In this document: positions 3,867-25,869 of the stretch, piece after piece
Position numbering within the stretch: the stretch's first letter is position 1
Layout of the letters: each line of letters begins with the position of its first letter
Assembly (NCBI GenBank): GCA_000934665.2
Contig: JYFJ02001157.1
Span: 62,001 to 89,291, forward strand
Direction: 5' to 3'
Source: Catajapyx aquilonaris
Taxonomy: Eukaryota
Length of the DNA stretch: 27,291 bases
The notes under the pieces: model-generated
What the model saw: only the letters and a program-made list of their open reading frames with translations
Told to the model about the DNA's origin: nothing
Database searches by the model: none
Program-made: the position numbers and the translations under genes

Positions 3867-5918
3867 TTACATGACGCACTTGGGGGCATCATGAATCAAT
3901 GCCTCGATCCATGGAAGGAATTCTGAAAAAAAATTAAAAATATTTCACTATTTGGAACTGTGAGATGACTCGTTTAGTGGTCATATTTTTAATACAGTTA
4001 ATTATTCCAAAAAAAATTCACTCTGCTTAATATGTGTGAACAGCCTTTTATAAATTTTTTCGGTGATTTTTTACATGGTAATAATATTGAATAAAATGCA
4101 AGAGGAGACATACCTGCTAGAAAAATGAAGTCGGTTTTATTTCGATCACAACAAGTGTTTCCTGCCAGTCCAACGGCCATGCGACGACCATTCAGACACT
4201 CCTGGGTTGCAGGCACTCCTCGGTACATCGATTCCTGTCAGATATGAAATATTCAATACCACAAAATGTTACAAATCACATTTTAAGTGAGCATGACATT
4301 ACTGTGCATTTGTCCTCAGTAATTAAGGGCAGATAATCCTCGGGACTCATTGAGAAATCCATGCTGTTCATGAAAATGTCAAATGGAGAGGACATGAAGC
4401 ACATAGGCGTAGCCACTCCTCGAGGTCCTAATTCCAAGGGATCTTTCAACTCCAGCAGAGTCACCTCTACTCCATTCACATTCACGACGGTTGTCTCCTT
4501 CACTCTGCGACTCGTCTTATTATCACTTTCCACAACCACCTTCAACAATGGCATCGTGACGTCACTGAAAATATACATGCTCGTTGGTCAACAATTTGAA
4601 GTTCATTATTCAATGGCTTACTGTAGAAATCCAGAATTGACAGTCAATATGTGACGATCTGAAATTATTCCTCCTTGCTGGACAGGCACGTCCTCAATAT
4701 TGATGCTGACCAACCATGGATCTATTGCATCCTCATCATTACTGTTGTTCCTGCCGCATTCTGTAAGTAACTGAATGTAATAATTTGAACTGCAGTAACA
4801 CTGTGGTGCCATTTTCGTACCACAATCAAAGGGACACAAGGCTGGTGATGGAACGTATTTTTCATCATCGGGGACATTGACCACTCTGCACTCAAATCCA
4901 GGTTTTTGGACAGAATCATCTGTGTGGAACCATACCACCAAGGTGCGATCATCGGTCCAAATCATTTCTTTGAGCACCTCAGTTCCATTCCCACAAAACC
5001 TTTAAATAACAGGGAATGTACGACAACCATCAGCACTATAGCAAGGTGAAATGAGGAAAACCTTCACCTTGACTCTTGAGTGAGTCATACCGACAGCTGG
5101 CGGCCTTACCTGGAGCTGCTGTTGACATCAAACACCTGCAGGAAGTCCTTAGGACATCCCTGGGACGACTCCTCCAGCTGGAAGCAGGGGCAGTGGATAC
5201 CCAAGGTGCCTCCTTCTTCTGCTTGAAAGACCCACACCTCGTCCACCAGTGGTGAGTAACTCTTGGAATTGAAATCAGAACTTCGAAGCACTCCGATGAC
5301 CCCTGTTTCTAAGACGTATGACCCCGGTGTGAGGTCGCTGTAGACTGATGGGTCCAGAACATCCAGACCTTGAGATGGCCTGATGGTAGATGTTGAAGGA
5401 ACCTGGGTTGTAGGTCTGCTGGTGAAGGCTGTAGGTCTGGTAGGCATACCGCTGGTAATATTGACAATTCTGGTTGTGCCAGCTGAAAATATGGTATTGC
5501 CACCGGTGGTACTGTCGTTGGTGGCAGTTCCGGGTGGAAAAGTGGCTTGTTGTTCCCATGGCAGAGGGTTTTTCGTGGATGGTTGTTCAGTAGTTTTATC
5601 TTTATAGAACATGTCAAATATGGAGCGTTTCAGACGTGTGCTTCGTTCATGGCGGGAGTTGGCTTGGCTATGCAGTGTAATCTAAAATTGGTCGCAAAAT
5701 ATGAGTATGTCGGCATAATAATTATTAGTGTTATATAATCACCCTGTAAGTTCGAGCTCAAAATGTGCAGTGGCTTAATTTTTAGTGCAATATTTTTCCT
5801 CAAGATAATCTGTTCTGTCTCAAATGATGAAATTACATATAAATGTGCATGAATATTCCAAACGTACCTCAGATGCGAAGAGAATAAAGGCGATGCCTAA
5901 TGGGCAAAAAATATTCAT
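3867..5918 (-). CDS. Secreted CUB-domain serine protease homologue (non-catalytic) with a Thr/Ser-rich linker, ~459 aa; exons 5918-5868, 5681-5110, 4999-4821, 4760-4622, 4564-4303, 4234-4114, 3922-3867
   Basis: Signal peptide MNIFCPLGIAFILFASE and an RLKR furin-type site. T/P-rich tract, then a CUB domain (CPCFQLEESSQGCPKDFLQV...RFCGNG...LVVWFHTDDSVQKPGFEC) and a CPFDCECG linker. Trypsin-like remnants: PWLVSI, GGIISDRHILT, VTLLELKDPL, PMC, FLPWI. All six introns are GT-AG with matching phases. Confidence 0.82.
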
Positions 5919-6502: not shown

Positions 6503-7820
6503 TCACTCATCTGTCGTGTAGAGGGATTCTTCAGTATGCTGTTGGCAAGCACTTTGTGTTTGAGTAAACAAACAATTGAAGAAAGTTGCCCCGCTGCTGC
6601 AAGTGTCGGGATCATCTCGGGCTGAGTCCATGCAAGAGGTAACCATCTCACGGTCCATTCGATCATAAGGATATTCTAGCGAATCAGTCGTGAAGTTTCC
6701 GTTTATGTCAACCTGGAGGAACAACGCGTGTCATACAAAAATAATTGCTCTTGTGATACATTGTCATTGTTATTACCATGTTCAGCCATTCCATCACGCA
6801 GGTACCGCCGCACTGAAATTCAGGACAAGTTAGTTATCAACTATAATTATATGATTAAATAGCTCTTTGTATTATTGTGGACATGGTCACTCGTGTTTCA
6901 TAACCAATAAGCAGAGCTATATTTTGTCTGACACAATCTTTTGGCATGTCAAAGGAGTTGTAGTGCATGTTGATTATGCAAGTGTTTCGGATAATTTTTC
7001 AGCAGAAAAAATACAAAACAATTTGCATACATCATACCTCTAAGCATTTCATAAGGTTCATTTCATCCGACTCTGACAATTTAGGATTTCTGCAAGGTTC
7101 ATTTCCAGGGCAAATCTGAAATAGAACATTTATGTAAGAGAAAATACTATGTAGTGAAAAATAAAAGTGCAAAATAATAAGAAAAAGCGATATCATTATT
7201 AGTGAAGACGATTTTGCGTTACTCTTGCAGGTTTAGAATACAATAGGCCTTCTGAATGTAACTTACCTTTGGCAGGGACATGTAGAGACATTTTATGAGA
7301 TACGCATATCCATCACAAATATCATCTGGAATGACCAATTTTTTGGTTCGAGATATGCAAGTATCAAGTAAGTGGCTCATAATTGGTCTGGATTGGGGAA
7401 ACTCCTCTTCTGGGTAGAGCCAGTCCAGTGTTTTATCCACATTGGGATAGCCATCCTCTCCAATCATGTCTTTTTCTTCCAGTAAACATTGAGCTACACA
7501 CTTTTATTAGAGAACATTAGTGAAACATGAGAGACCTACAATATTTTAATGGAATTGCCCTGTTATCACACTTACTAACTGGCATATCTGTTGTCCCTCC
7601 TGATATTGTCTAACTGCTGTGTTAAAGAGTCGGCAGCCCTCATCTACGTCTTCGTCTTCAGAATCCTGGGGGAGGATATACACAGAGGCCATAGTTTAAA
7701 ATAAATCCGTTATAGTACTTAAACTGTTGTTCAGAAATCATGCTAGCATATGAAGAAACTAACCTGTCCATTGACAAGAAAGAAGACGTTGACCAACAGG
7801 AGCAGCAATGTTAGTTTCAT
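6503..7820 (-). CDS. Two-domain OBP-like secreted protein, copy A (intact, 234 aa); exons 7820-7764, 7665-7576, 7500-7267, 7115-7038, 6812-6777, 6712-6503
   Basis: Signal peptide MKLTLLLLLVNVFFLVNGQ. Each domain has the OBP core spacing C-X3-C...C...C-X8-C plus two extra Cys (16 Cys in total). All introns are phase 0 GT-AG, and the structure repeats in the paralogues. Confidence 0.85.
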
Positions 7821-8284
7821 CTTCAGGATGAATACGATGAGTGTTAGTTCACTCGCATAAAGGCACTAATCCAATTTTATTTTGCTAGCAGCACATATAT
7901 ATTTCTCATCACTTCCTTGCGGAAGATGTGCTTCCTGCCTTAGATTAATAAGTTCAGCGTAAATGTCAATGGGCAATCCAGGTACTGCAATCATAGTCCA
8001 AACTGGCTTTGAAAGCAACTGATATAATGGCTCATCACTACCGTGCAGAATACACTCTTCCTGCCTTATAGGCTATGTCACGTCACGATGTTCAGTTTGG
8101 TTGCTTTTATTATACCATTGCATCATAAGAGACACATGTGTAGAGTCTATATCGGAATGTACACATTTCACACTTCCGTTACAAGCAGGATCATTTTGTT
8201 GTTACCCAAGTTCACAGAGCAAATTAAAATCACCCAATGGTCGTGTTGGCTCATTATTCTGCTGATGGCTCGGAGCAATAAGGA

Positions 8285-10029
8285 TTATAAGCACTTAATT
8301 TGGTATTCCCTAAACAGACAAATGAAGAAAGATTCCCCGGCGGCGCAGGAGTCGGAAGCTTCTTGGGCCGAATCCATGCAAGATTTGACCATCGTACGGT
8401 CCATCGCGGGATAAGGCCACATCATTCTACGAGAAGCGGTGAAGTTTCCGTTTTCATCCACCTGCATCAGGAACAACATGCCATGCTAAATAATTGCTCA
8501 TTGATTGCTCTACATTAAGTAGTTTTGGTTTAAATTGTCTTGTTATTACCATGTTGAAATAGTCCATCACGCAGTAATCGGCGCACTGAAATGTATAGAA
8601 CAAGCTACTCATAAATTATAATAATTAACCAACATTATTATTGGGCACAGAAACTTGAATTTCATAACCACGCAAGAGGAAGAGTAGTACTGTAATACTG
8701 CAGAATTTTAAAAAGCTTTGATGTAGTCCTGATGCGTAAACCAAGCCAGGCACATTTGTCTGAAACATTCTTTGCCATATAATAAGTTATATATCAAACG
8801 AATTTCTAGGTGCACCTAAACGATGCAAGCAGTGTTTGAGATGTTTGTGAGCCGGACAAAATACGAGCGCACATTTCACATAGCATACACCATATACCTG
8901 GAAGCATTTTGTCATAAGGTTCATTTGATCCGACTCTGATATCAGAGGATTTCTGCAAGGTTCATTTCCAGGGCAAATCTGAAATGAAACATTTATAATT
9001 ATAACAGCGAGTACAGTAACATACTGTAAATCTAGTACCGTATGTTAGGCTAGCTTACCTTCGGCATGGACATCTCGACACAGCTCATAAGTTTGGCATA
9101 TCCATTGCACAGATCATCTGGAATGATCAAATTTCTGTTTCGAGATATGCAAGTATGAAGTATGTAACCGATAAGTGGTCTGGAATGGGGAAATATCTCT
9201 CTTGGATCGTGGATAGAGCCAGTCCAATGTTTTATCAATATCCGGATAGCCATCTTCTTTAAGGATACCTTTTTCTTCAAGGGCACATTGAACTCCACAC
9301 TTTAATAAATTAAAGTTCTTTAGTGAATCAGGAGAGATTTTGAATATTGTAATAAAAACTAGCAATTATTGCACTTACATATAGGCATACCTCTTGTCCA
9401 TACTCATAGTATTCCACTGCCGTGTTAAGGATTTGGCAATATATATCTGACTGTGAGTTGTCTTCAGAGTCATCAGCCTGGAGGAGGATATACCCAGAGA
9501 ACATAGCTAACAATGATCCATTCTACATTTCTACGCTCCTACATAATATTATTATATAGTGTAGTGCCAATATAGTGGACTTCCTTTCATTCATACCTGA
9601 GAAGTCATATCTGAGTAGTCGTTGTCTTCATAGTCATCATCCTGGAGAAGGATATACACAGAGAACATAGCTAACAATGATACATTCTACGCCGCTACAT
9701 AATTATAGCATAGTGCCAATTATAGTGAACTTCCTTTCATTCATACTTTGTATACTCAACATGCAAAAATATTCCAAAGGAAGGGGCAATATCCATAACT
9801 CAATGGGAAAAGAATTTCAATTACGCAAAATTATTTTGAGACTGTAGAGTACATCTTCACCCCACATACGAGTACATATGGGTAAAGGTTTCAGCAGATG
9901 AAACTTGGAGGTATTTTTAGCATATCTTAAATTACTGTATCATAAATCACACTAGCATAATATTATGAAGAAACAAACCTGTCCATTGACAAGAAGCAAG
10001 ACGTTGACCAACAGCAGTGGTAGTTTCAT
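8285..10029 (-). pseudogene. Two-domain OBP-like copy B, frameshifted; exons 10029-9979, 9641-9597, 9477-9379, 9299-9059, 8978-8898, 8585-8550, 8461-8285
   Basis: Paralogous to copies A and C. The core exon is 241 bp versus 234 bp in the intact paralogues because of a 7-nt insertion within 9203-9214, which gives a stop at 9114. All other exons are open with intact splice sites. Confidence 0.75.
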
Positions 10030-10480
10030 CTTCAGCAGGATTAATCCGTCGTGTATGCACATAGAGGCACTAAGCCAAATTCGTTTTGAAAGCGGCTGTT
10101 ACTGTATAATTGCCCATCACTTTCCTGCGGAAGATGTGCTTCCTCCCTTAGATAAACAAATTGTAGGCCTAAAATAATGTCAACTTGGTTTCTATATTAG
10201 GCCTGCAGTAAAATGCAATGGTAATACTGTATGAGGTTGTAAGTTATTATTCGTATTCTCCTGTATTTTTTAAAATTCTTATATCGGTATAGGGATATCT
10301 TCCTCTTTCTCTCCTTGCTATGATGGTGAATATATTGTTACCTTTTAATTTTACCAACATGCTGTTTTGCAAGTACACTTTGAAAATTCCCTTTATGTTC
10401 CCTAACCAAATGGTAGCAATAATTAAAATTCCAAAGATTACATTTTTTACATTATATATGTAGCCTACTGTACAATATAG

Positions 10481-11075: not shown

Positions 11076-12729
11076 CTAGAGGCAATACGTTTGGTATTTC
11101 CCAAACATACAAGTGGCGAAAGATTCCCCGGCGGCGCAAGAGTCGGAAGCTTCTTGGGCCGAAACCATGCAAGAGTTGACAATTCTTCGGTCCATCATAG
11201 CATAGGGCTCCTGCATCGAATCAGGTGTGAAATGTCCATTTTCTTCTACCTGCAGGAAGAACATGTCATGCAAAATAATTTCTCATTGATTGCTCTACAC
11301 AAAATAGGTTTGTTTTAAATTGTCTTTGTTATTACCATGTGAAAATATTCCATCACGCAGTAATTGGTGCACTGAAATATAGAACAAGTTAGTCATCAAT
11401 TATAATAATTAAACAACAAACTACTATTGTGCACAAAAACTTGAATTTCATAACCACGCAACAGAAAGAGTTACTGTATAAGACTGCAGAATATTAAAAA
11501 AAACCTTTGAAGTAGTCCTATGACGATAAAGACACATTTGTCTGAAACATTCTTTGCCATAAGTTATATCAAAAGTATGTCTAGGTGCACGTTAACGATG
11601 CAAGTGTTTGAGATGTTTGTAAGTCGGATAAAATACAAGTGTACAGTTCAAAAGGCATGTACACCATACCTGGAAGCATTTCATCATACGGTTCATTTGA
11701 TCCGATGACTCGGCTGATATCTGAGGATTTCTGCAAGGTTCATTTCCAGGGCAAATCTGAAATATAAATATAAAATATATAACAGCGAGTACAATAACTG
11801 TAAATCTAGTACCTTATGTAGCTTATTACCTTTGGCCTAGATAAGTCGACACACTTCGCAAGTATGGCATATCCATTGCACATATCATCTGAAGTGACCG
11901 AATTTTTGGTTCGGGATATGCAAGTGTGAAGTACATGGCTGATAAGTGGTCTGGACTGGGGAAATTCCTCTCTTGGATAGAGCCAGTCCAATATTTTATC
12001 CACATTGGGATAGCCATCTTCTTCAAGCATACCTTTTTCTTCAAGGGCACATTGAACTCCGCACTTTAATTATTAAAAGTTTTTTGGTGAATCAGGAGAG
12101 ACTTGGAATACCATTCTTTAATAAAAACGAACAATGATTCCACTTACAATTTGGCATGTCTCTTGTGTACCCCTATGAAGTTGAACTACCTCGTTAAAGA
12201 TTTGGCAATCTATATCTGAGTAGTCATTGTCTTCATAGTCATCAGCCTGGAGGAGGATATACACATAGTTAACGATGATCTATTCTACGCCCCTACATAA
12301 TTATAGTCTAGTGCCAATGGTGGACTTCCTTTCATTCATACCTGGGTCGTCACATCTGAGTAATCGTTTTCTTCATAGTCATCGGCCTGGAGGAGGATAT
12401 ACACAGAGAACATATAGTTAATGATAATTATATTCTACGCCCCTACGTAATTGTAGCATAGCGCCAATTATAGTGGACTTCCTTTCATTCATACCTGAGG
12501 AGTCATATCTGAGTAGTTGTTGTCTTCATAGACAACAACTTCATAGTCTTCGTCTTCATAGCCTTCATAGTCATCATCCTGGAGCAGGATATACACAGAG
12601 ATCATTGGAGGTATGTTTAGCATATCTTAAATTACTGTATCATAAATCACACTAGCATTTGAAGAAACAAACCTGTCCATTGACAAGAAGCAAGACGTTG
12701 ACCAACAGCAGCAGCAGTGGTAGTTTCAT
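11076..12729 (-). CDS. Two-domain OBP-like secreted protein, copy C (intact, ~271 aa) with a long acidic Tyr-rich N-terminal extension; exons 12729-12673, 12578-12495, 12386-12342, 12246-12148, 12063-11830, 11756-11670, 11371-11336, 11249-11076
   Basis: Signal peptide MKLPLLLLLVNVLLLVNGQ, two duplicated phase-0 mini-exons, then the conserved 16-Cys two-domain core. No stops or frameshifts. Confidence 0.85.
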
Positions 12730-13353
12730 CTTCAGGATTAATCCGTTACCTAACGTTCGTGTATGCACTTAGAGGCACCAAGCCAAATTGATTTTGAAAG
12801 CAGCTGATATAATTGCACATCACTTTCCTGCGGAATATGTGCTTCCTGCCTCCGATAAAAAAGTTGCAAATGCCAATAGGATAATTCAGGTACTGTAATC
12901 TGACTATAAATAAAGAGGCTTTGAAAACAACTGATACAATTGCCCATCGCCCTCCACCACAATATATGTGCTTCCTGCCTTAGATAAACAAATGGTAAAA
13001 TGTCGATTTGGTTATAAAGGTGCTGCAAGTGTACCATCTTAATTCAAATTGAGTATGCGATGGGCTATTGTCTATTGCATAGATATTCATACAAGAAAAT
13101 AAGTTAACATTATTAAAATCCTCACTGCCTTATTTTAACAATAACTCAGACTCCACAGGTACTGCTTGTATATACAAGTTTGCCACCATCTTAAGATGGC
13201 ACCATCTAACATGCACATAATACAAGTATTATTATCAAGCTCATTGCAGAGTTTCAACTTGTTCAGGAGCATTGGTAAATAAAGTGTCAGTTAAATTCAG
13301 TCAGACCATACCATAATTTATTAGGTGGTGGCAATTTTAAATGTGTGATAAAT

Positions 13354-14416
13354 CTATATGGCACAATCTGATTCATATTTGGATATCATGCACTGCATCA
13401 TATTTTCGGCCACCACACACTTGTCATCAATGGTTTCAGTGTCACCAGTACATGACCTCATCATCCCTCGTATCATTCTTGGCAAATTTTGGCCAAATTT
13501 TCCTTCCTCGTCCATCTGCAAGGGTAAAAATAGATTATTCTCAATTGATAAAATTAACTGACATCCAAATGTGTAACAAAAGTATGATGTGCGACTAATA
13601 TTACCCAGCCTTGAAATTCCATGACACACTTCGATCCACACTGAAATTAATGCATTAATATTAAATGAGGTAGCCATTGTAGCCAACAATTCTGGTAGCA
13701 GAATATTGAGAAATTCTGTAAGTTACCTGATTGCACTGATTCATAATGTCCACATCATCTTGTGTTAATTGCATTGACGGATTCAAGCAAGGTTCATTTC
13801 CAGGGCACAGCTGAAATACAAGAATGTTACAAAAACACAATTATTGTCATGGTTTAGCTTGCTGCATAATGCAGTACCTAGTGCACTTAGAATTAAAGTT
13901 AAATATCAAAATAAAAATTGTAACCTTTGGTGAGGTAAGTTCTAAGCATGAGAGTAGATGAGCATATCCATCACACATGTCATCTGGGGATAATGTTTTC
14001 TTGACTCTTGAGATGCATGTGTTCGCAATTTGTTTCATTGTTGGTCTGCTTTCGGGGAATAGATCCTCTGGGTAGAGGAAGTCTATTACTTCATCTACTT
14101 TGGGAAACCCTTCTTCATCGACCCAGCCCTTCTCTCCCAGGACACATCGGAACAAGCACTGCAATGTACACAGCAACTACCTTTATTACCATGCTGGATA
14201 CAAAATGCCAAAAAAGCAGCGGTGCAGCTTACCGCCTGGCAAATGGGTTCGGTTTCTTGCGCCTTCATTAATATCTTCTCTAAAATTTCACATTTCATGC
14301 TGGACTGGAAATGCAATAGTCACATATACACAAATAATTTTAAAAATGCCTGTGATACTCACCTGAACACCCACAAAAAGTGAGGATGCAAGGAGAAGAA
14401 TCTTAAAAGCCGCCAT
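13354..14416 (-). CDS. Two-domain OBP-like secreted protein, copy D (intact, 213 aa, most divergent, no acidic tail); exons 14416-14363, 14304-14233, 14158-13925, 13810-13727, 13640-13605, 13515-13354
   Basis: Signal peptide MAAFKILLLASSLFVGVQS, the same 16-Cys pattern, the CPGNEPC inter-domain linker, and the identical 234-bp and 36-bp exons. Confidence 0.87.
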
Positions 14417-14819: not shown

Positions 14820-17440
14820 CATGTTCAGCCATTCCATCATGCAGTAATTGCCACATTGAAATGCAGGACAAGTCAGTTATCAACTGCAGTATAACCAAAC
14901 TATACTTTGCATTATTGTGGACATGGTCACTTGTTTTTTGATAGCCACACAAGAGCCAGAGTGACTGGAAAAGGCAACATATTTGTTTGGTTTGATGACC
15001 TAACTATGGTCTTTTAGAGTATTATTTTATGTACTGTACATGTATAAGGTAGTTACAATATTTTCCACATATACAGGCTGCGCAATGTGCACGTGAAATA
15101 CCCACAGAGAAGCATGTGACTTGGAAAAGCAGGTGAACAAACAAGCCTGAAAAATAATGCACCAGTCATTATTGTTATTCTGAGAAGAATAGCGTACATT
15201 GTTCCTCTGTTTATCTGTTGGTGACTACGTTCAATGGTGATGTGTCATGCAAGCCAACGAGGGGAAATCACTGTCCCTGACTGTATGACTGATTTACAGA
15301 TTTGGTTGGACTTACAAGGGGGGGACATGAAGTGGACTCTGTCAGATTTGCATGAAACGTGCACAGTAGGTGTATCACAGGCCTACAATTTCACTGGTAT
15401 GGGCCATTTTCTGCTACGGCCAGCCGTTGTCGATCTATGAGGGACAATAGATCCGCATGGGTGCGTTCAGGAGAGTAAGGTGAGGAGATGGGAAGCGTTA
15501 GGAAAGCTGGCTGTTCAGTTTCCAGGGGCACGCAGCTAGTAAACAACAAAGTAACCAACAGCGCAATTCTCTAAGGAGGGGTTCGAATCACGTTAGAATC
15601 ATCTTCAGTTGTTGTTCCCTTGGCAAGCTGCTTTGCAAGTGAGGCCTGCTTTAACCCTTTAGGTGGCCGAAACACCTTTAACTACTTCGGTGGGGCCTGA
15701 GCGGCCCCAACGGTATATTTGACTCTCTGCTTATCAGCGAAATTGTTATCGTGGACTTTTCACATACCGAAAGTTCAATTCAGATCATTCAGCTTCCGAA
15801 AACGTAAAAATCACACACTGAGTCAGCATATTCCGACAGAAAAATGGGTATTGTTTATGACTTATTAACAGTCACGGGTGGGCTGACTCTTGTCAGTTAT
15901 TTTGAGAGTCACGTGTTCACCTGCCCAATATCGCCTAGCTTGTGGCCTAGCTGGTGAGCGATATCTTTTGAAATTTTCTCCACAAGAGTGTTGATGTATT
16001 GGCTAAAGAGTATTCCTAATTTCAAAGGGTGAGGGCGTGAAAGCGTATGCTGGTTTTGGTTGGCTTCTCTCGAATTCGAGAAGGTTTCGTGTGGTTTTCT
16101 GGGTGATGGTTTCGGAAGATGTCTGCACGAAAGTGTACACCAGTTTCTTGAAGCAGCTACCCCCTCTGTTTTGTTCCTGATTTGCATCGAAAGTTGTCGT
16201 TATTATTGTTTCACATCAATAAGATGCGTGCAACATGGGTCACATAAATGAAGTGAACCATGCATTGGCATTATGGGTACAGGGTAAGGGTAATGTGAGA
16301 CGGAAAAAAAGCAAACATAAAAAATAATTGGTCCTGAAGATGATTAGAACCCCTGCTTAGAAAATTGCGCTGTTGGTTACCTTGTTGTTTACTAGCTGCG
16401 TGTCCCTGGAAACTGAACAGCCAGCTTTCCTAACGCTTCCCGTCCCCTCACCTTACTCTCCTGAACGCACCCATGCGGATCTATTGTCCCTCATAGATCG
16501 ACAATGGCTGGCCGTAGCAGAAAATGGCCCATACCAGTGAAATTGTAGGCCTGTGATACACCTACTGTGCACGTTTCATGCAAATCTGACGGAGTCCACT
16601 TCATGTCCCCCCCTTGTTAGTCGGATTTAGGGAGGAATGATGACCGTCTCGCATTACAAATTGAGTAATACACAACTTGCATGTTGTATGAAGGAAGATC
16701 TGAATAAACAGCTGGACAAACATTGTAAGTGTTTAAGCAGGATAAAATACAATGCAAATGTCATACACAACACCTGGAAGCATTTCATAAGGTCCATTAT
16801 ATCCTAATCCGACACCAGAGGATATCTGCAAGATTCATTTCCAGGTCAAAGCTGCAATGAAACACATATGTATGAGAAAAAATACGACATAGTGAAATGT
16901 CAAAGAATATCTGCAGACTCAATGACATCTACCTGCCCATTTGTATCTAGTGATATTACTGTACGAGAAGGAAATTTTGTGTCATTCTTGCAAACTAACT
17001 GTAAATCTCGAATATTCCTTACCTTTGGCAGAGAATTGCGGACACAATTTGCAATAGGAGCATATCCATTGCCAAATCATCTGGAGTGAGCAAACCTTTG
17101 GTTCAGGATATGCAAGTATGAAGTATGTGACTCATAAATAGTCTGGACTTGGGAAACTCCTCTTCTTCGTAGAGCCAGTTCAATAGTTTATCCACACTGG
17201 GATAGCCATCTTCCTCAAGCATACCTTTTTCTTCAAGGGCACATTGAAATGCACACTTCAATAACATAATTTGGGTGAATCAGGAGACATGGAGACAGGA
17301 GACTATGAATATGAACAATTTGTTATTACACTTACTAGTGGTCATAACTCTTGTCCTTCCAGATAGTATTCAATTGCTGTGTTAAATAGTTCACATTGCA
17401 CTTCTAAGAAGTCATATTCTAAGTATTCATAGTCATCATC
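14820..17440 (-). pseudogene. Two-domain OBP-like copy E, decayed pseudogene; exon remnants 17440-17336, 17255-17023, 16851-16774, 14855-14820
   Basis: At least four premature stops: TGA at two conserved Cys codons, CGA>TGA, and a TAG. There is also a 1-bp deletion (233-bp exon), an AG>AA acceptor at 14856-14857, and a transposon in the intron. The first and last exons were not found. Confidence 0.9.
15315..16616. mobile_element. Non-autonomous DNA transposon, 1.3 kb, with ~290-bp terminal inverted repeats and a putative TTA target-site duplication
   Basis: 15315-~15608 is the near-perfect reverse complement of ~16334-16616 (CAAGGGGGGGACATG...CATGTCCCCCCCTTG). TTA flanks both ends. No transposase ORF. 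Confidence 0.9.
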
Positions 17441-18921: not shown

Positions 18922-20549
18922 TTAAAGTGCCTGTGGCACTGGCGCAAGAGGGGCCAGACTCCGTGGTTGAACCACTCTGACAGTCTGGTCCCAGGCGCAG
19001 TCGGCCAGCACTCCCTCTCGATGCAGGTTTAGATCCAGTCCATACACAAACTCCGAGTGGTGTTGCATCTCCTCCAAGGCATACACAGGGGCCTGAAGGT
19101 CCCAGGTGCGTGTAGTAAAGTCATAAGAAACCGAGATCAAACAGGATGCACGGTGAGGAGAGAACTTGATGCGCCGAACAGCATATTGGTGACCCTGATG
19201 AAAACAATCTTTTAAGCATCATCGGTATAGCTTTGTCATCTGGATGCAGCGATTCCTTTTGCATGTGAAGTGCCTGCAAAAGTAATAATGTTCAAGCAAC
19301 TTACGCTCAAAACATGGGCAGGCTTTTGTAGCTTGCGCAAGTCCCACACAAGTGCAAGTCCATTAGTACATCCTGTCACTATGTGATGCTGCTCATATTT
19401 GGACCAATCACAGCACAGAACTTCTGAGTCATGCACTGCGACACTAATTGGGGGTGCGGCAGGTGGGGACTGGGTGCTCCACAACCGCAATGTAGTATCA
19501 CCTGAAGAAGGCCGATTAGGATCATTAATGAAGAAAGGCACTGGTTAATTTCATGGTGAAACGTTGAATATGACACCGTATCATTACTACCAAATGCTAG
19601 TAACTTTTTTCAAATTAAATTAACCCTACTACGTTAGGAAAGTTCCAGACACCTGAGACAGATCCAAATATGTTGGCCATGTGTGGAGACCAAGTCGCAG
19701 AGTAGACAAGCTGCTGGTGACCTACAAACTTCGACACGCACAACTCCTTTGCTGGGTCCCACTGCAGGGAAAGATTAAAATTAGTACAAATTGAATAAGA
19801 ATTCAATACATAAGACAACAACAACAACAACATCACGACATTTCCCTAGGAGGGGTAGTCAGCGATGAAGGGAGACGCAAGCTAACCCAACATATGAACT
19901 AATAAAACTCATGAGAATAAACCTAAAAACAACCTGTCCCACCCCCCACCCCTGCCCACCTCAGACATCAAAAAAAAAAAAAAAAAATGTCTGAGAATAC
20001 ATAAGACACCTGCAAAAATAACTTACAAGTCGAACTGTAGTATCCCACGATGCTGAGAGGACCATAGGTTGAGTCCTGGTTTGCGACCAATCGACTCCAT
20101 ACACTTCTTTCGTGTGACCTCGCAGGCATTTCGGTTTAGGCTGCACAGAGAAGGTCATGTTTACAGATACGAATTGCGGATACAAACTACAGCAACTCAC
20201 AGTTCCAATCTTCCAGAGCTGGACAGTGCCATCCCCCCCTCCTGCGACAAGAACCTCAGGATCATTCTCACTCCAGGTAACATCAAACAAACCGTCGGGG
20301 TACTCCATACGGGCGGCAAGGACCATCTGTCCCGACCCATCGTTGGGGACGTCCAGAACCAATAATTCTCCAGGACCTACAAATCAATGCTGATCCATCA
20401 CCGGATCCATTTGCATTATCCTAAAATCATTTACCTTCAAGCCCATATCTTTGGCAAGCCGCACAGACCAGTCTGTCCGGTAGATAAGGCGACCACTTGA
20501 CCGCGTACCCGTACGTCTCAGGTGTAGAAAAGGTAGCAACAACATCCAT
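18922..20549 (-). CDS. PEX7: Peroxisomal targeting signal 2 receptor (peroxin-7, WD40); exons 20549-20435, 20376-20201, 20140-20027, 19761-19653, 19501-19305, 19194-18922
   Basis: Diagnostic PEX7 motifs GYAVKWSPY, YGLEGPGEL, DGLFDVTWSE, GHTKEVYGVDW, HDSEVLCCDWSKY, GHQYAVRRIKFSPH, SVSYDFTTR, HHSEFVYGLD and ADCAWD. Splice phases are consistent. Confidence 0.96.

Positions 20550-20742: not shown

Positions 20743-20809
<67 letters not shown>
20743..20809. repeat. (TAA)22 microsatellite
   Basis: Directly visible in the sequence. Confidence 0.98.
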
Positions 20810-20811
<2 letters not shown>

Positions 20812-21029
20812 TAATATTTAAGTGACAATGAATTACTTCATCATGGCTTATAAGTTTACATCGACGTTTATTATGTAACAATCAGTGGTGGATTGTTCAG
20901 CAGCAGTTTCTACCAGGCAGTTTTATTTTGTGGTTATCGGAAACATGGATTGTTTACATGAGGAAGTTGCAGGATACTGACAGTGTTGCGCAGGTCTGGC
21001 TGCTTATAATTTCTGGTCATGGATCTTCT

Positions 21030-22786: not shown

Positions 22787-24217
22787 TCACTTGACCGGCA
22801 AGAATGTCCGGGTGTTCCTGTGACTTGCAATGACCACTTGTCCCTCGGGAAGCATGGTTGCCTTGACAGTGGCAAAGTATCCTGCCTTCTTCTTATTCAG
22901 CAACTTGCTCATATCCTTCCTCTGCCCGAAACGAGTTGTGTACCCCTTCATCAGCTTCTGCTCGTATTTCTTGTTGATCTCCAGTTTCTTGTGGCAATCC
23001 TGGTAGTCGTACAGGAGCATGCGGCTGGTCAGAAGTCCAGCCTTTCGGATGTTCATGTCAATCTTGCGTCTGAAATCTTCCTTCTTCTCCAGGGCTGATG
23101 ATGTCTCCTTTCGCCTCTATAATGACGAACAATGACAGATTTTACGACAGACGACAATAAATGATGGAAGACACGTACCTGCCAGATGTCTTTGTCCAAA
23201 GTAGCTATTTCACTTTTCTTCCTTTCAGTAGCCTTCTTGAAGTGCGACACTTTCTCCCTCATGTGAGTCAGCTGGTGTATGTTAGCCACTATTCCTTTGT
23301 ACAGAGCACATATCTCTTCGTCGCCTTCCTCGATCTTCTGCTTGTAGATCTGGTTCTCGATCTTCTTCTGCTCGAAGTCAATCAGCTGCTTACCTTCTCC
23401 GAAAGTGTTCAGGCCCACCAGTTCCTTCTCGCCCTCTTCCACCATTGTCTTCAGCTGGTTGTACTTGACACGAACTGAGGTCAAGGTTGCCTCCTTCTCC
23501 TTCATTTGCCTCAGGTAGCTTTCAATATCCTAAACACAACCGGAAATTATTGCACCTCACAGAATGAGTCAGACAAACAACTCCAGAGGATATCCAGAAG
23601 CAATGGACACTTTTGCATACAACCTCTGGGGCACCTTACCGTGGCTGGGATCGGATTTCCAGTGTTTTCGTCCCTGGCTTGTACAGCGAAATTGGCGAAC
23701 ATTTCGAAGACTCGAGACTTCTCTGCTGTCATCTCCTGGTAGCTCTTGATCCCTTGAGGTCGCAGAATGGCGATTTGTCTTTTGAAGTCTGTCTCCTGCA
23801 CCTCTTTTGTGGCATAAAGCTCCTTGAAGTTCTGCAGATATTTCTTGTACTCATACTCCAGCTTCACCTCATCACGGTCTTTCTCTTGCACCACAAGTTC
23901 GTGAGGCTGCAATAGTTACGACGAAGGTTTGTTGATCAGATTGTTCCTAATGTTTATTAGACAAGAAGTCACATTAATCTCACCTCTACGACGTCAATCA
24001 TATCGCTTATGATCCGCTGAAGCTCCATGTTCTTCTTCCTCAACTGCTGCCTCTCTTTGACGATCTCCTGCAGCCTCTCCAAGACATGGTGTTTCTTCCC
24101 TTTGGATCGGTTTGTTTTTTGCGTGGCCTTAGAGGAGGCTGCTGATCTCGCTGATTCCCGAGGCTCCACATCTTCTCCGCTCTCTTCCCTGATCACACTG
24201 TTTTCATTACTATCCAT
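22787..24217 (-). CDS. CCDC96: Coiled-coil domain-containing protein 96 (CFAP184, DUF4201 family), axonemal; exons 24217-23984, 23906-23640, 23529-23179, 23116-22787
   Basis: GEGKQLIDFEQKKIENQIYKQKIEE, LTHMREK, TGNPIP and GLL....LL.DY match my recollection of the CCDC96 signature (GEGLHLIDFEQLKIEN...KIEERN). Three phase-0 introns join the ORFs. Confidence 0.87.
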
Positions 24218-24336
24218 GACGGAATTTATGTGCCAACAAAGCCAAGGTGTATTTCCTAGGTTATCGTCTAACAATACCCACAACAATGTGGTATTTATTT
24301 TCTAGGGCAATTATTGTGGAGAGAGGGCCAGATCCA

Positions 24337-25783: not shown

Positions 25784-25869
<86 letters not shown>
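25784..25869. repeat. (AT)43 microsatellite
   Basis: Directly visible in the sequence. Confidence 0.98.

Follow-up and report, generated by a model that had tools for sequence, protein, structure and literature searches.

Copy C and its N-terminal tail

The stretch of DNA analysed here, hereafter called the window, comprises 27,291 nucleotides (nt) of contig JYFJ02001157.1 (positions 62,001 to 89,291) in the Catajapyx aquilonaris assembly GCA_000934665.2, and reads as animal DNA with short introns. It contains five tandem paralogous two-domain genes, named A, B, C, D and E. The subject of this report is copy C (12729-11076), an intact gene of the odorant-binding protein (OBP) family, in which repeated copying of an exon-plus-intron unit has built an acidic, tyrosine-rich tail between a signal-type peptide and the first cysteine. 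All coordinates refer to the whole window, and copy C and its paralogues are encoded on the minus strand.

Copy C has an intact open reading frame (ORF) of eight exons and 271 residues; all exons are in phase 0 and are bounded by canonical AG/GT sites. Exon 1 (12729-12673) provides the start codon and a 19-residue hydrophobic peptide of signal type (MKLPLLLLLVNVLLLVNGQ), as read from the sequence, and ends at the donor CAG/GTTTGT. Intron 1 (12579..12672, 94 nt), with its acceptor region in the last 22-30 nt, is followed by mini-exon 2a (12578-12495; 84 nt, 28 codons, phase 0), which encodes DDDYEGYEDEDYEVVVYEDNNYSDMTPQ and contains one N-Y-S sequon. Repeat-unit intron 2a (12387..12494, 108 nt; donor GTATGAAT, branch-like motif TTAAC, acceptor CCTCCTCCAG) leads to mini-exon 2b (12386-12342; 45 nt, 15 codons, phase 0; ADDYEENDYSDVTTQ). 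Repeat-unit intron 2b (12247..12341, 95 nt), which is 90.5% identical to intron 2a in ungapped columns, leads to exon 2c (12246-12148; 99 nt, 33 codons). The latter opens with the lead ADDYEDNDYSDID, reaches the first Cys at codon 14 and continues into the first helix of OBP domain 1 (CQIFNEVVQLHRGTQETCQI). Both added exons, 2a and 2b, have a pyrimidine-rich acceptor ending in CCAG and the donor CAG/GTATGAAT. Exons 3-6 follow the ancestral plan (12063-11830, 11756-11670, 11371-11336, and 11249-11076 including the stop codon) and encode, within 11076..12063, the remainder of domain 1, a CPGNEPC linker, and domain 2.

The tail, measured from exon 1 to the first Cys and encoded by exon 2a, exon 2b and the start of exon 2c, comprises 56 residues with 25 Asp/Glu, 9 Tyr and no Lys or Arg. 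These counts, and the coordinates that an initial annotation of this DNA had assigned to the tail, were reproduced exactly. A six-frame scan of the 27 kb for 15-residue windows with at least 7 Asp/Glu and at least 2 Tyr returned only three places, all at the equivalent point of a gene, namely in paralogues C, B and E. Since all three lie at one gene position of paralogous genes, they are not a matter of chance composition, and the divergence of about 10% between the copies makes an assembly artefact unlikely. No competing long ORF was found on either strand of 12100-12650, and no Rfam family matched the window.

Origin of the tail by cassette duplication

Tandem Repeats Finder reports a tandem repeat at 12264-12540 with a period of 153 nt (1.8 copies, 79% matches, score 350). 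Alignment of the 5' regions of A, B and C shows that the mini-exon reproduces codons 1-15 of exon 2, Cys codon included, with the consensus [A/D]DDYE[D/E]N[D/N]YSD-x-x-x-Q. The copied Cys codon now reads Pro in exon 2a, Thr in exon 2b and Ser in the mini-exon of copy B, so that none of the three mini-exons contributes an unpaired Cys. Each mini-exon is preceded by a copied intron-1 acceptor, TGTGTATATCCTCCTCCAG, and only the last 22-30 nt of the repeat introns are traceable to intron 1 (z 7.5-10.8; none of 300 shuffles reached the score). The four repeat introns, two in C and two in B, are 87.5-92.6% identical and open with the same GTATGAATGAAAGGAAGT (donors CAG/GTATGAATGAAAGGAAGT). Beyond these four sites the repeat unit was not found elsewhere in the window. 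Exon 2a has in addition been lengthened by micro-repeats of 9 and 15 nt at 12539-12577, built on a Tyr-Glu-Asp/Gly unit.

The initial annotation had proposed that the tail grew by tandem copying of exon-plus-intron units taken from the 5' part of exon 2, each with a new GTATGA donor. The repeat period and the alignment agree in supporting the copying. The donor is indeed present at each unit, but it is not independently new: as all four repeat introns share it, it arose once and was then copied with the cassette. Local tandem duplication, more than once, of a unit of ~140-153 nt (a 45-nt mini-exon plus ~100 nt of intron) has lengthened the N-terminus. The CAG/GTATGA donor travelled with the unit, and exon 2a grew further by slippage of 9 and 15 nt. 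Passages of PMC2891723 describe how a small tandem duplication can create a new short intron together with a coding piece (the proto-splice-site model), and how a duplicated unit whose length is a multiple of three permits in-frame alternatives.

Two sources for the body of the new intron were considered, and neither is supported. Derivation from a decayed distal part of exon 2 did no better than shuffled sequences in 15 of 16 comparisons (the remaining one at p about 0.013, uncorrected). Derivation of its first ~75 nt from intron 1 did no better in 11 of 12 (the remaining one at p about 0.033).

Protein family of copy C

Exon 3 alone matches the Pfam family PBP_GOBP (PF01395) in C, A and D with 22.2, 24.0 and 27.3 bits, respectively; the gathering cut-off is 22 bits, and copy C stands barely above it. 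Exon 6, which represents domain 2, gave no PBP_GOBP match on its own. Common to A, C and D are 16 Cys, eight in each domain, and the CPGNEPC linker. Spacings of OBP type are visible in C as CGVQC and C-x8-C in domain 1 and as CTNYC in domain 2, and C-x3-C and C-x8-C can be seen in both domains. The ratio of nonsynonymous to synonymous substitution rates (dN/dS) in the core is 0.22 between C and D and 0.56 between A and C, values that place this part of the window genes under purifying selection.

A word-based search with exon 3 against longer proteins yielded 35 candidates, none of them significant. A profile of the three exon-3 peptides, run against 1.84 billion representative sequences, returned five matches at E<=0.001, of which P0002 is the sole real relative. 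P0001 was rejected as a long repeat protein matched over just 22 profile positions, and P0003-P0005 (678-2722 residues), matched over 24-32 positions, were not counted as relatives. P0002 has 239 residues, is 26% identical (blastp E 1.7e-15) and scores 35.6 bits against PBP_GOBP in two stretches; all 16 of the Cys columns common to A, C and D are present in it. Its cluster has a single member, and a search seeded with P0002 returned only itself. The protein databases searched contain no product of copy C. A look-up of its nearest clusters points, as a lead only, to arthropod OBP families (scores 0.80-0.85). The single-sequence AlphaFold model of P0002 is helical, but with a mean predicted local distance difference test (pLDDT) value of 44.4 it is too low in confidence for use. 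The CPGNEPC linker is unchanged in A, B, C and D (11670-11756, 7038-7115, 13727-13810) and corresponds to CAPGNPRC at residues 128-136 of P0002.

Judged by its sequence, copy C is a very divergent secreted tandem ('dimer') protein of the OBP family, with two domains and 16 Cys. The secreted two-domain OBP described initially is thus upheld by the exon-3 matches of A, C and D, all of which exceed the PBP_GOBP cut-off, and by the 16 conserved Cys. The label 'D7-like', given to it at the same time, holds only for the two-domain layout. It finds no further support from the Protein Data Bank (PDB), where D7 structures are present: neither the exon-3 profile nor P0002 retrieved a D7 chain by sequence at E<=10, and the best matches at this threshold were OBP69a (E 0.2) and pheromone-binding proteins (E 0.4).

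These results bear on a possible effector function. Copy C might be a D7-like salivary or venom 'kratagonist' whose hirudin-like arm docks on host thrombin, complement or chemokines. The two-domain OBP architecture and the acidic Tyr-rich tail are both present, and in blood feeders sulfated acidic tails are what drives the binding of thrombin, according to passages of PMC9372746 and PMC10951654. Against this stand the best PDB matches, which are classic odorant- and pheromone-binding proteins (E 0.2-0.4) and include no D7 chain up to E 10, and the fact that only one intact gene is tailed. No sign of a blood-feeding or venomous host was seen, and no pointer to the gland, saliva or venom role that had been suggested was found. 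We consider this explanation highly improbable.

Paralogous genes and other features of the window

By sequence, the tails of the five paralogues form the graded series that the initial annotation had described: D has none, A has DSEDEDVDEG, E has a Tyr-bearing lead, B has one extra cassette and C has two. The series is real as sequence; two of its members, B (through a 7-nt frameshift) and E (through stops, a deletion and an insertion), are pseudogenes as assembled. Just three of the five genes are intact: D, which is tailless, A, whose tail is acidic but free of Tyr, and C, with the full tail. In copy A (7820-6503) the short acidic tail lies in exon 2 (7576..7665), ahead of the first Cys. 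In copy D (14416-13354) exon 2 (14233..14304) places SSMK before the first Cys.

Copy B (about 10029-8288) retains exon 1 (10029-9979), an orphan repeat intron (9746-9642) whose mini-exon is gone, a mini-exon (9641-9597; DDDYEDNDYSDMTSQ), a second repeat intron (9596-9478), and an exon 2 (9477-9379) that begins with ADDSEDNSQSDIYC and has lost its Tyr (ADDSEDNSQSD). In its exon 3 (9059..9299) a 7-nt insertion, a local duplication after TGGCTCTATCCA, causes a frameshift followed by a stop. Because copy B looks otherwise intact, the insertion marks either a young pseudogene or an assembly error. Copy E (about 17440-14817) is a decayed gene. Its exon 2 (17345..17440) begins with DDDYEYLEYDFLEVQC and then has TGA at the Cys codon of the paralogues. 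The gene has also suffered a change of CGA to TGA, lost 1 nt and taken up a 1.3-kb inverted-repeat insertion. Exon 1 and exon 6 of copy E were searched for, and neither was found. The insertion is of foldback type, with 282-nt inverted arms (15309-15590 and 16341-16622) that are 96% complementary and 750 nt apart, and sits between the remnants of exon 4 and exon 5.

Comparison of B with C reveals an uneven distribution of differences. Exon 1 is identical at 51 of 51 aligned bases (9979-10029 and 12673-12729), and the repeat intron before the Cys-bearing exon 2 is 92.6% identical against a background of 83% (p=0.012). This 5' identity points to gene conversion or constraint. In its 3' half, which encodes the first helix of domain 1, exon 2 is only 61-69% identical among A, B and C (12148-12201, 9379-9432, 7576-7629). 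Between B and C this half matches at 33 of 54 positions, as against 612 of 739 (about 83%) in the rest (Fisher p=0.0004), with C (NEVVQLHRGTQET) departing most from NTAVxxYxEGQ. Fast or diversifying evolution may have taken place beside the tail. Upstream of the start codons of A, B and C, at a distance of ~75-120 nt, lies a conserved block GGAAGCACAT-TTCCGCAGGAAAGTGATG, followed by a TATA-like AATTATA (minus strand; 12760-12830 in C, 10090-10150 in B, 7900-7950 in A). As a putative promoter that C has in common with A and B, this block supports a functional copy C. A partial second copy of it is found 5' of C at ~12940-12990.

The window includes at least one single-domain relative, an OBP-like gene (22183-21040, minus strand) with a leader of its own (MKLLIAVVLIAVVSA) and no acidic tail. 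The neighbouring genes, likewise on the minus strand, encode an alpha-1,4-glycosyltransferase (1419-2472; Gb3_synth, 92.7 bits), a CUB-domain protein (4276-5681; at the cut-off with 21.5 bits), a WD40 protein with PEX7 as its best named matches (18922-20383), and a coiled-coil protein of the ciliary type CCDC113/CCDC96 (23053-24301). The closest match to an exon of the PEX7-like gene is 48% identical, and the named matches come from a hemichordate, amphioxus, a teleost and an annelid. Perfect or near-perfect microsatellites occur at 532-615 ((ACACCTTT)x10.5), 20743-20816 ((TAA)x24.7) and 25784-25869 ((AT)x43).

Sulfation potential of the tail

Tyrosylprotein sulfotransferase (TPST) occurs throughout Metazoa (passages of PMC9372746). 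According to passages of PMC9372746 and PMC6272617, sulfation is restricted to secretory proteins and goes with acidic residues within +/-5 positions of the Tyr and with a flexible segment. In most good metazoan substrates position -1 is occupied by Asp; a neutral residue may also stand there, but a basic one is disallowed. The former source adds that TPST may show rather little selectivity within flexible, anionic segments with multiple Tyr, and counts the acidic tracts at the N-terminus of secreted proteins among four known sulfotyrosine contexts.

In copy C, the signal-type exon 1 directly precedes the tail, and secretory passage is predicted from it. The residue before the tail Tyr is Asp in six of nine cases and Gly, Val or Asn in the other three; in the folded core, Asp precedes none of the eight Tyr. 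Within +/-5 positions, all nine tail Tyr have 3-7 acidic residues and no basic one. One tail Tyr is found 5 residues ahead of the first Cys, and two are near the N-Y-S sequon; a nearby Cys or N-Y-S sequon may reduce sulfation of a Tyr. The view that the tail is a target of TPST type therefore fits the published determinants, by Asp at -1 in six of nine and by acidic, base-free surroundings in nine of nine Tyr, and its sulfation appears plausible.

The tail of copy E offers a further comparison. A table in PMC6272617 lists the PSGL-1 peptide ATEYEYLDYDFL as sulfated in vitro by Drosophila TPST. The copy E tail, DDDYEYLEYDFL, is identical to this peptide at eight of nine core positions; this match was noticed post hoc, and its significance is inflated by the choice. 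It shows what tail the lineage formerly had and that a sequence of this sort is acceptable to an insect TPST, not that copy C is sulfated. A PDB sequence search with exon 2 of copy E returned just two engineered proteins (E 0.18-0.19), with no stretch significant alone, and one with exon 2a of copy C returned no match.

One alternative is a tail that is real yet unsulfated. It would serve as a polyanion for Ca2+, mineral or cuticle binding, for cation buffering, or for solubility and extension (an entropic bristle). The initial annotation had itself named Ca2+ or mineral binding as an alternative, and the composition of the tail (25 of 56 residues are Asp or Glu, and none is basic) is in keeping with it. 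So is copy A, whose lead DSEDEDVDEG is acidic and free of Tyr, which indicates that acidity preceded the tyrosines. Charge alone, however, needs neither the enrichment of Tyr (9 of 56) nor its regular spacing (two per 15-residue unit) nor its position mostly after Asp, and the copy E tail closely resembles a model TPST substrate. An unsulfated polyanion appears unlikely.

Splicing and constraint of the mini-exons

The introns around the tail of copy C measure 94, 108 and 95 nt, within a cluster whose introns range over 58-298 nt, and the GTATGA donor hexamer also serves the conserved intron 4 of copy A. Three strong and near-identical acceptors lie 3' of the exon 1 donor, the nearest being that of exon 2a, 94 nt away. 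In insects with short introns, the donor and acceptor alone largely define the intron (passages of PMC2891723). As the introns are short and their splice sites resemble those of the neighbouring introns, inclusion of the mini-exons would be expected by default. The spliceosome would remove each short intron separately (intron definition), and the default product would carry the full 56-residue tail. A retained new intron reads GTA TGA, that is, Val and then a stop. Since the mini-exons are multiples of three, skipping 2a and/or 2b keeps the frame and would leave tails of 13, 28 or 41 residues.

We propose, tentatively and at somewhat less than an even chance, that the mini-exons are mostly included and that the tail forms a disordered, probably sulfated polyanionic arm by which the carrier is tethered to a basic partner. 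Copy C would in this case be a functional secreted tandem OBP-family gene with a cassette-extended N-terminus, and the tail a disordered polyanion that, being devoid of Lys and Arg, offers no dibasic cleavage site. During Golgi passage, several of the nine Tyr would probably be sulfated by the TPST of the animal. This would produce an acidic sulfotyrosine tract at the N-terminus, of the kind known from fibromodulin, PSGL-1 and hirudin tails. Such a tract could hold the carrier on a basic protein or surface, at a valency given by the number of units.

A number of observations weigh against this proposal. Two of the five tail grades, B and E, are broken genes. The tail is absent from P0002, the sole outside homologue among the 1.84 billion representatives. 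The last unit of copy B is without Tyr. The folded core of copy C is itself acidic (net -10), so that the tail adds charge to an already anionic protein. The mini-exons are 64-89% conserved, as against 87.5-92.6% for their introns; between 2b and 2c, 33 of 45 exon positions match, as against 86 of 95 intron positions (Fisher p=0.011), with the excess of differences mostly in the last 12 nt. This divergence, as it stands in the sequences compared, is not the pattern of plain purifying selection. Moreover, the splice sites of the units are equally intact in the frameshifted copy B, so that their preservation cannot be taken to show selection.

Several of these points would be expected if the tail were a neutral by-product. 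The duplications would then be recent junk in a cluster that evolves by birth and death, the mini-exons would be skipped or be noise, and the product would have at most the 13-residue lead ADDYEDNDYSDID and a functionless tail. The broken state of B and E, the perfect unit splice sites retained in frameshifted B and the faster divergence of exon parts than of intron parts are all in line with this, as are the tailless state of D and P0002 and the presence of a long tail in one intact gene only; further, 43 open codons are not improbable by chance. On the other hand, skipping of two good short introns is not the default expected in short-intron genomes (passages of PMC2891723), and the Cys codon has been eliminated in every mini-exon. 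Both unit Tyr are retained in all three units of the intact copy C and lost in the broken copy. Between 2b and 2c, the 33-nt cores show four differences, three of them synonymous and one a conservative Glu/Asp exchange. We regard a neutral by-product without function as unlikely on balance.

Novelty and implications

Full-text searches across about 8.1 million papers of PMC and 0.36 million preprints for 'odorant-binding protein' together with 'sulfotyrosine' returned no paper. The combination of the former with 'tyrosine sulfation' returned only an unrelated mite genome paper and a paper on a rodent urinary lipocalin. A review on OBPs contains no word beginning with 'sulfat'. The components of copy C are of known kinds; what it combines is a dimer OBP and an N-terminal acidic tract of sulfotyrosine type.

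If the proposed tail is expressed and sulfated, it would represent the first acidic tract of sulfotyrosine type found on a protein of the OBP family within the literature searched, and it would lend more weight to the notion that OBPs often act outside olfaction. The locus displays stages in the addition of a disordered module to a folded carrier by duplication of a cassette of ~150 nt. If the tail is not expressed, the locus would illustrate ordinary turnover in a fast-evolving gene cluster.

A more far-reaching form of the tethered-arm proposal appears improbable to us. It holds that the tail is a modular sulfotyrosine docking arm, convergent on tails of the PSGL-1 and hirudin type, with its valency set by copy number and by four splice forms (13, 28, 41 and 56 residues), on an OBP of effector-like, non-olfactory function. 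If true, a carrier of small ligands would be anchored to a particular basic protein or matrix. It would also provide a worked example of how a disordered module that bears a modification can be made from an intron-exon junction.

Comparison with known systems

Dimer or two-domain ('atypical') OBPs have been described in Diptera (passages of PMC8067015 and PMC3595023). Like copy C, they consist of one secreted polypeptide with two OBP cysteine signatures. Copy C differs from them by eight rather than six Cys per domain, by the CPGNEPC linker, and by having one outside relative at 26% identity. The literature searches returned no dimer OBP with an acidic Tyr-rich N-terminal tail. The long-form D7 salivary proteins of mosquitoes and sand flies share with copy C two OBP-type domains and secretion, according to passages of PMC6440969 and PMC2994686, whereas copy C matches no D7 chain in the PDB searches described above. 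We know of no sulfated tail on D7 proteins.

Closer to the tail itself are fibromodulin, lysyl oxidase and GPIHBP1, in which, as in copy C, an acidic, Tyr-bearing, flexible N-terminal tract precedes a folded Cys-rich domain (passages of PMC9372746). These are vertebrate matrix or endothelial proteins with leucine-rich repeats and other folds; in copy C the folded part is an OBP, and sulfation is predicted. With PSGL-1, the tail of copy C has only the DDDYE start and general composition in common. The stronger likeness of the copy E tail to PSGL-1 is one of convergence and not of homology, and belongs to a pseudogene. In PSGL-1, Thr and Ser residues follow the Tyr cluster, and the same arrangement is seen in the units of copy C.

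Hirudin and madanin, among the anticoagulants of leeches, ticks and insects, resemble copy C in placing a flexible anionic Tyr segment beside a functional module (passages of PMC9372746 and PMC10951654). Tails of the hirudin kind have two to three sulfotyrosines within six residues and a conserved motif for the thrombin exosite; copy C has nine Tyr spread over 56 residues, on an OBP. As to the manner of its construction, the tail is akin to known cases of intron and exon gain by tandem duplication, in which a short intron and a coding piece arise together and a unit length that is a multiple of three permits in-frame alternatives. In copy C, however, the duplicated unit spans an intron-exon junction and has then multiplied as an exon-plus-intron cassette.

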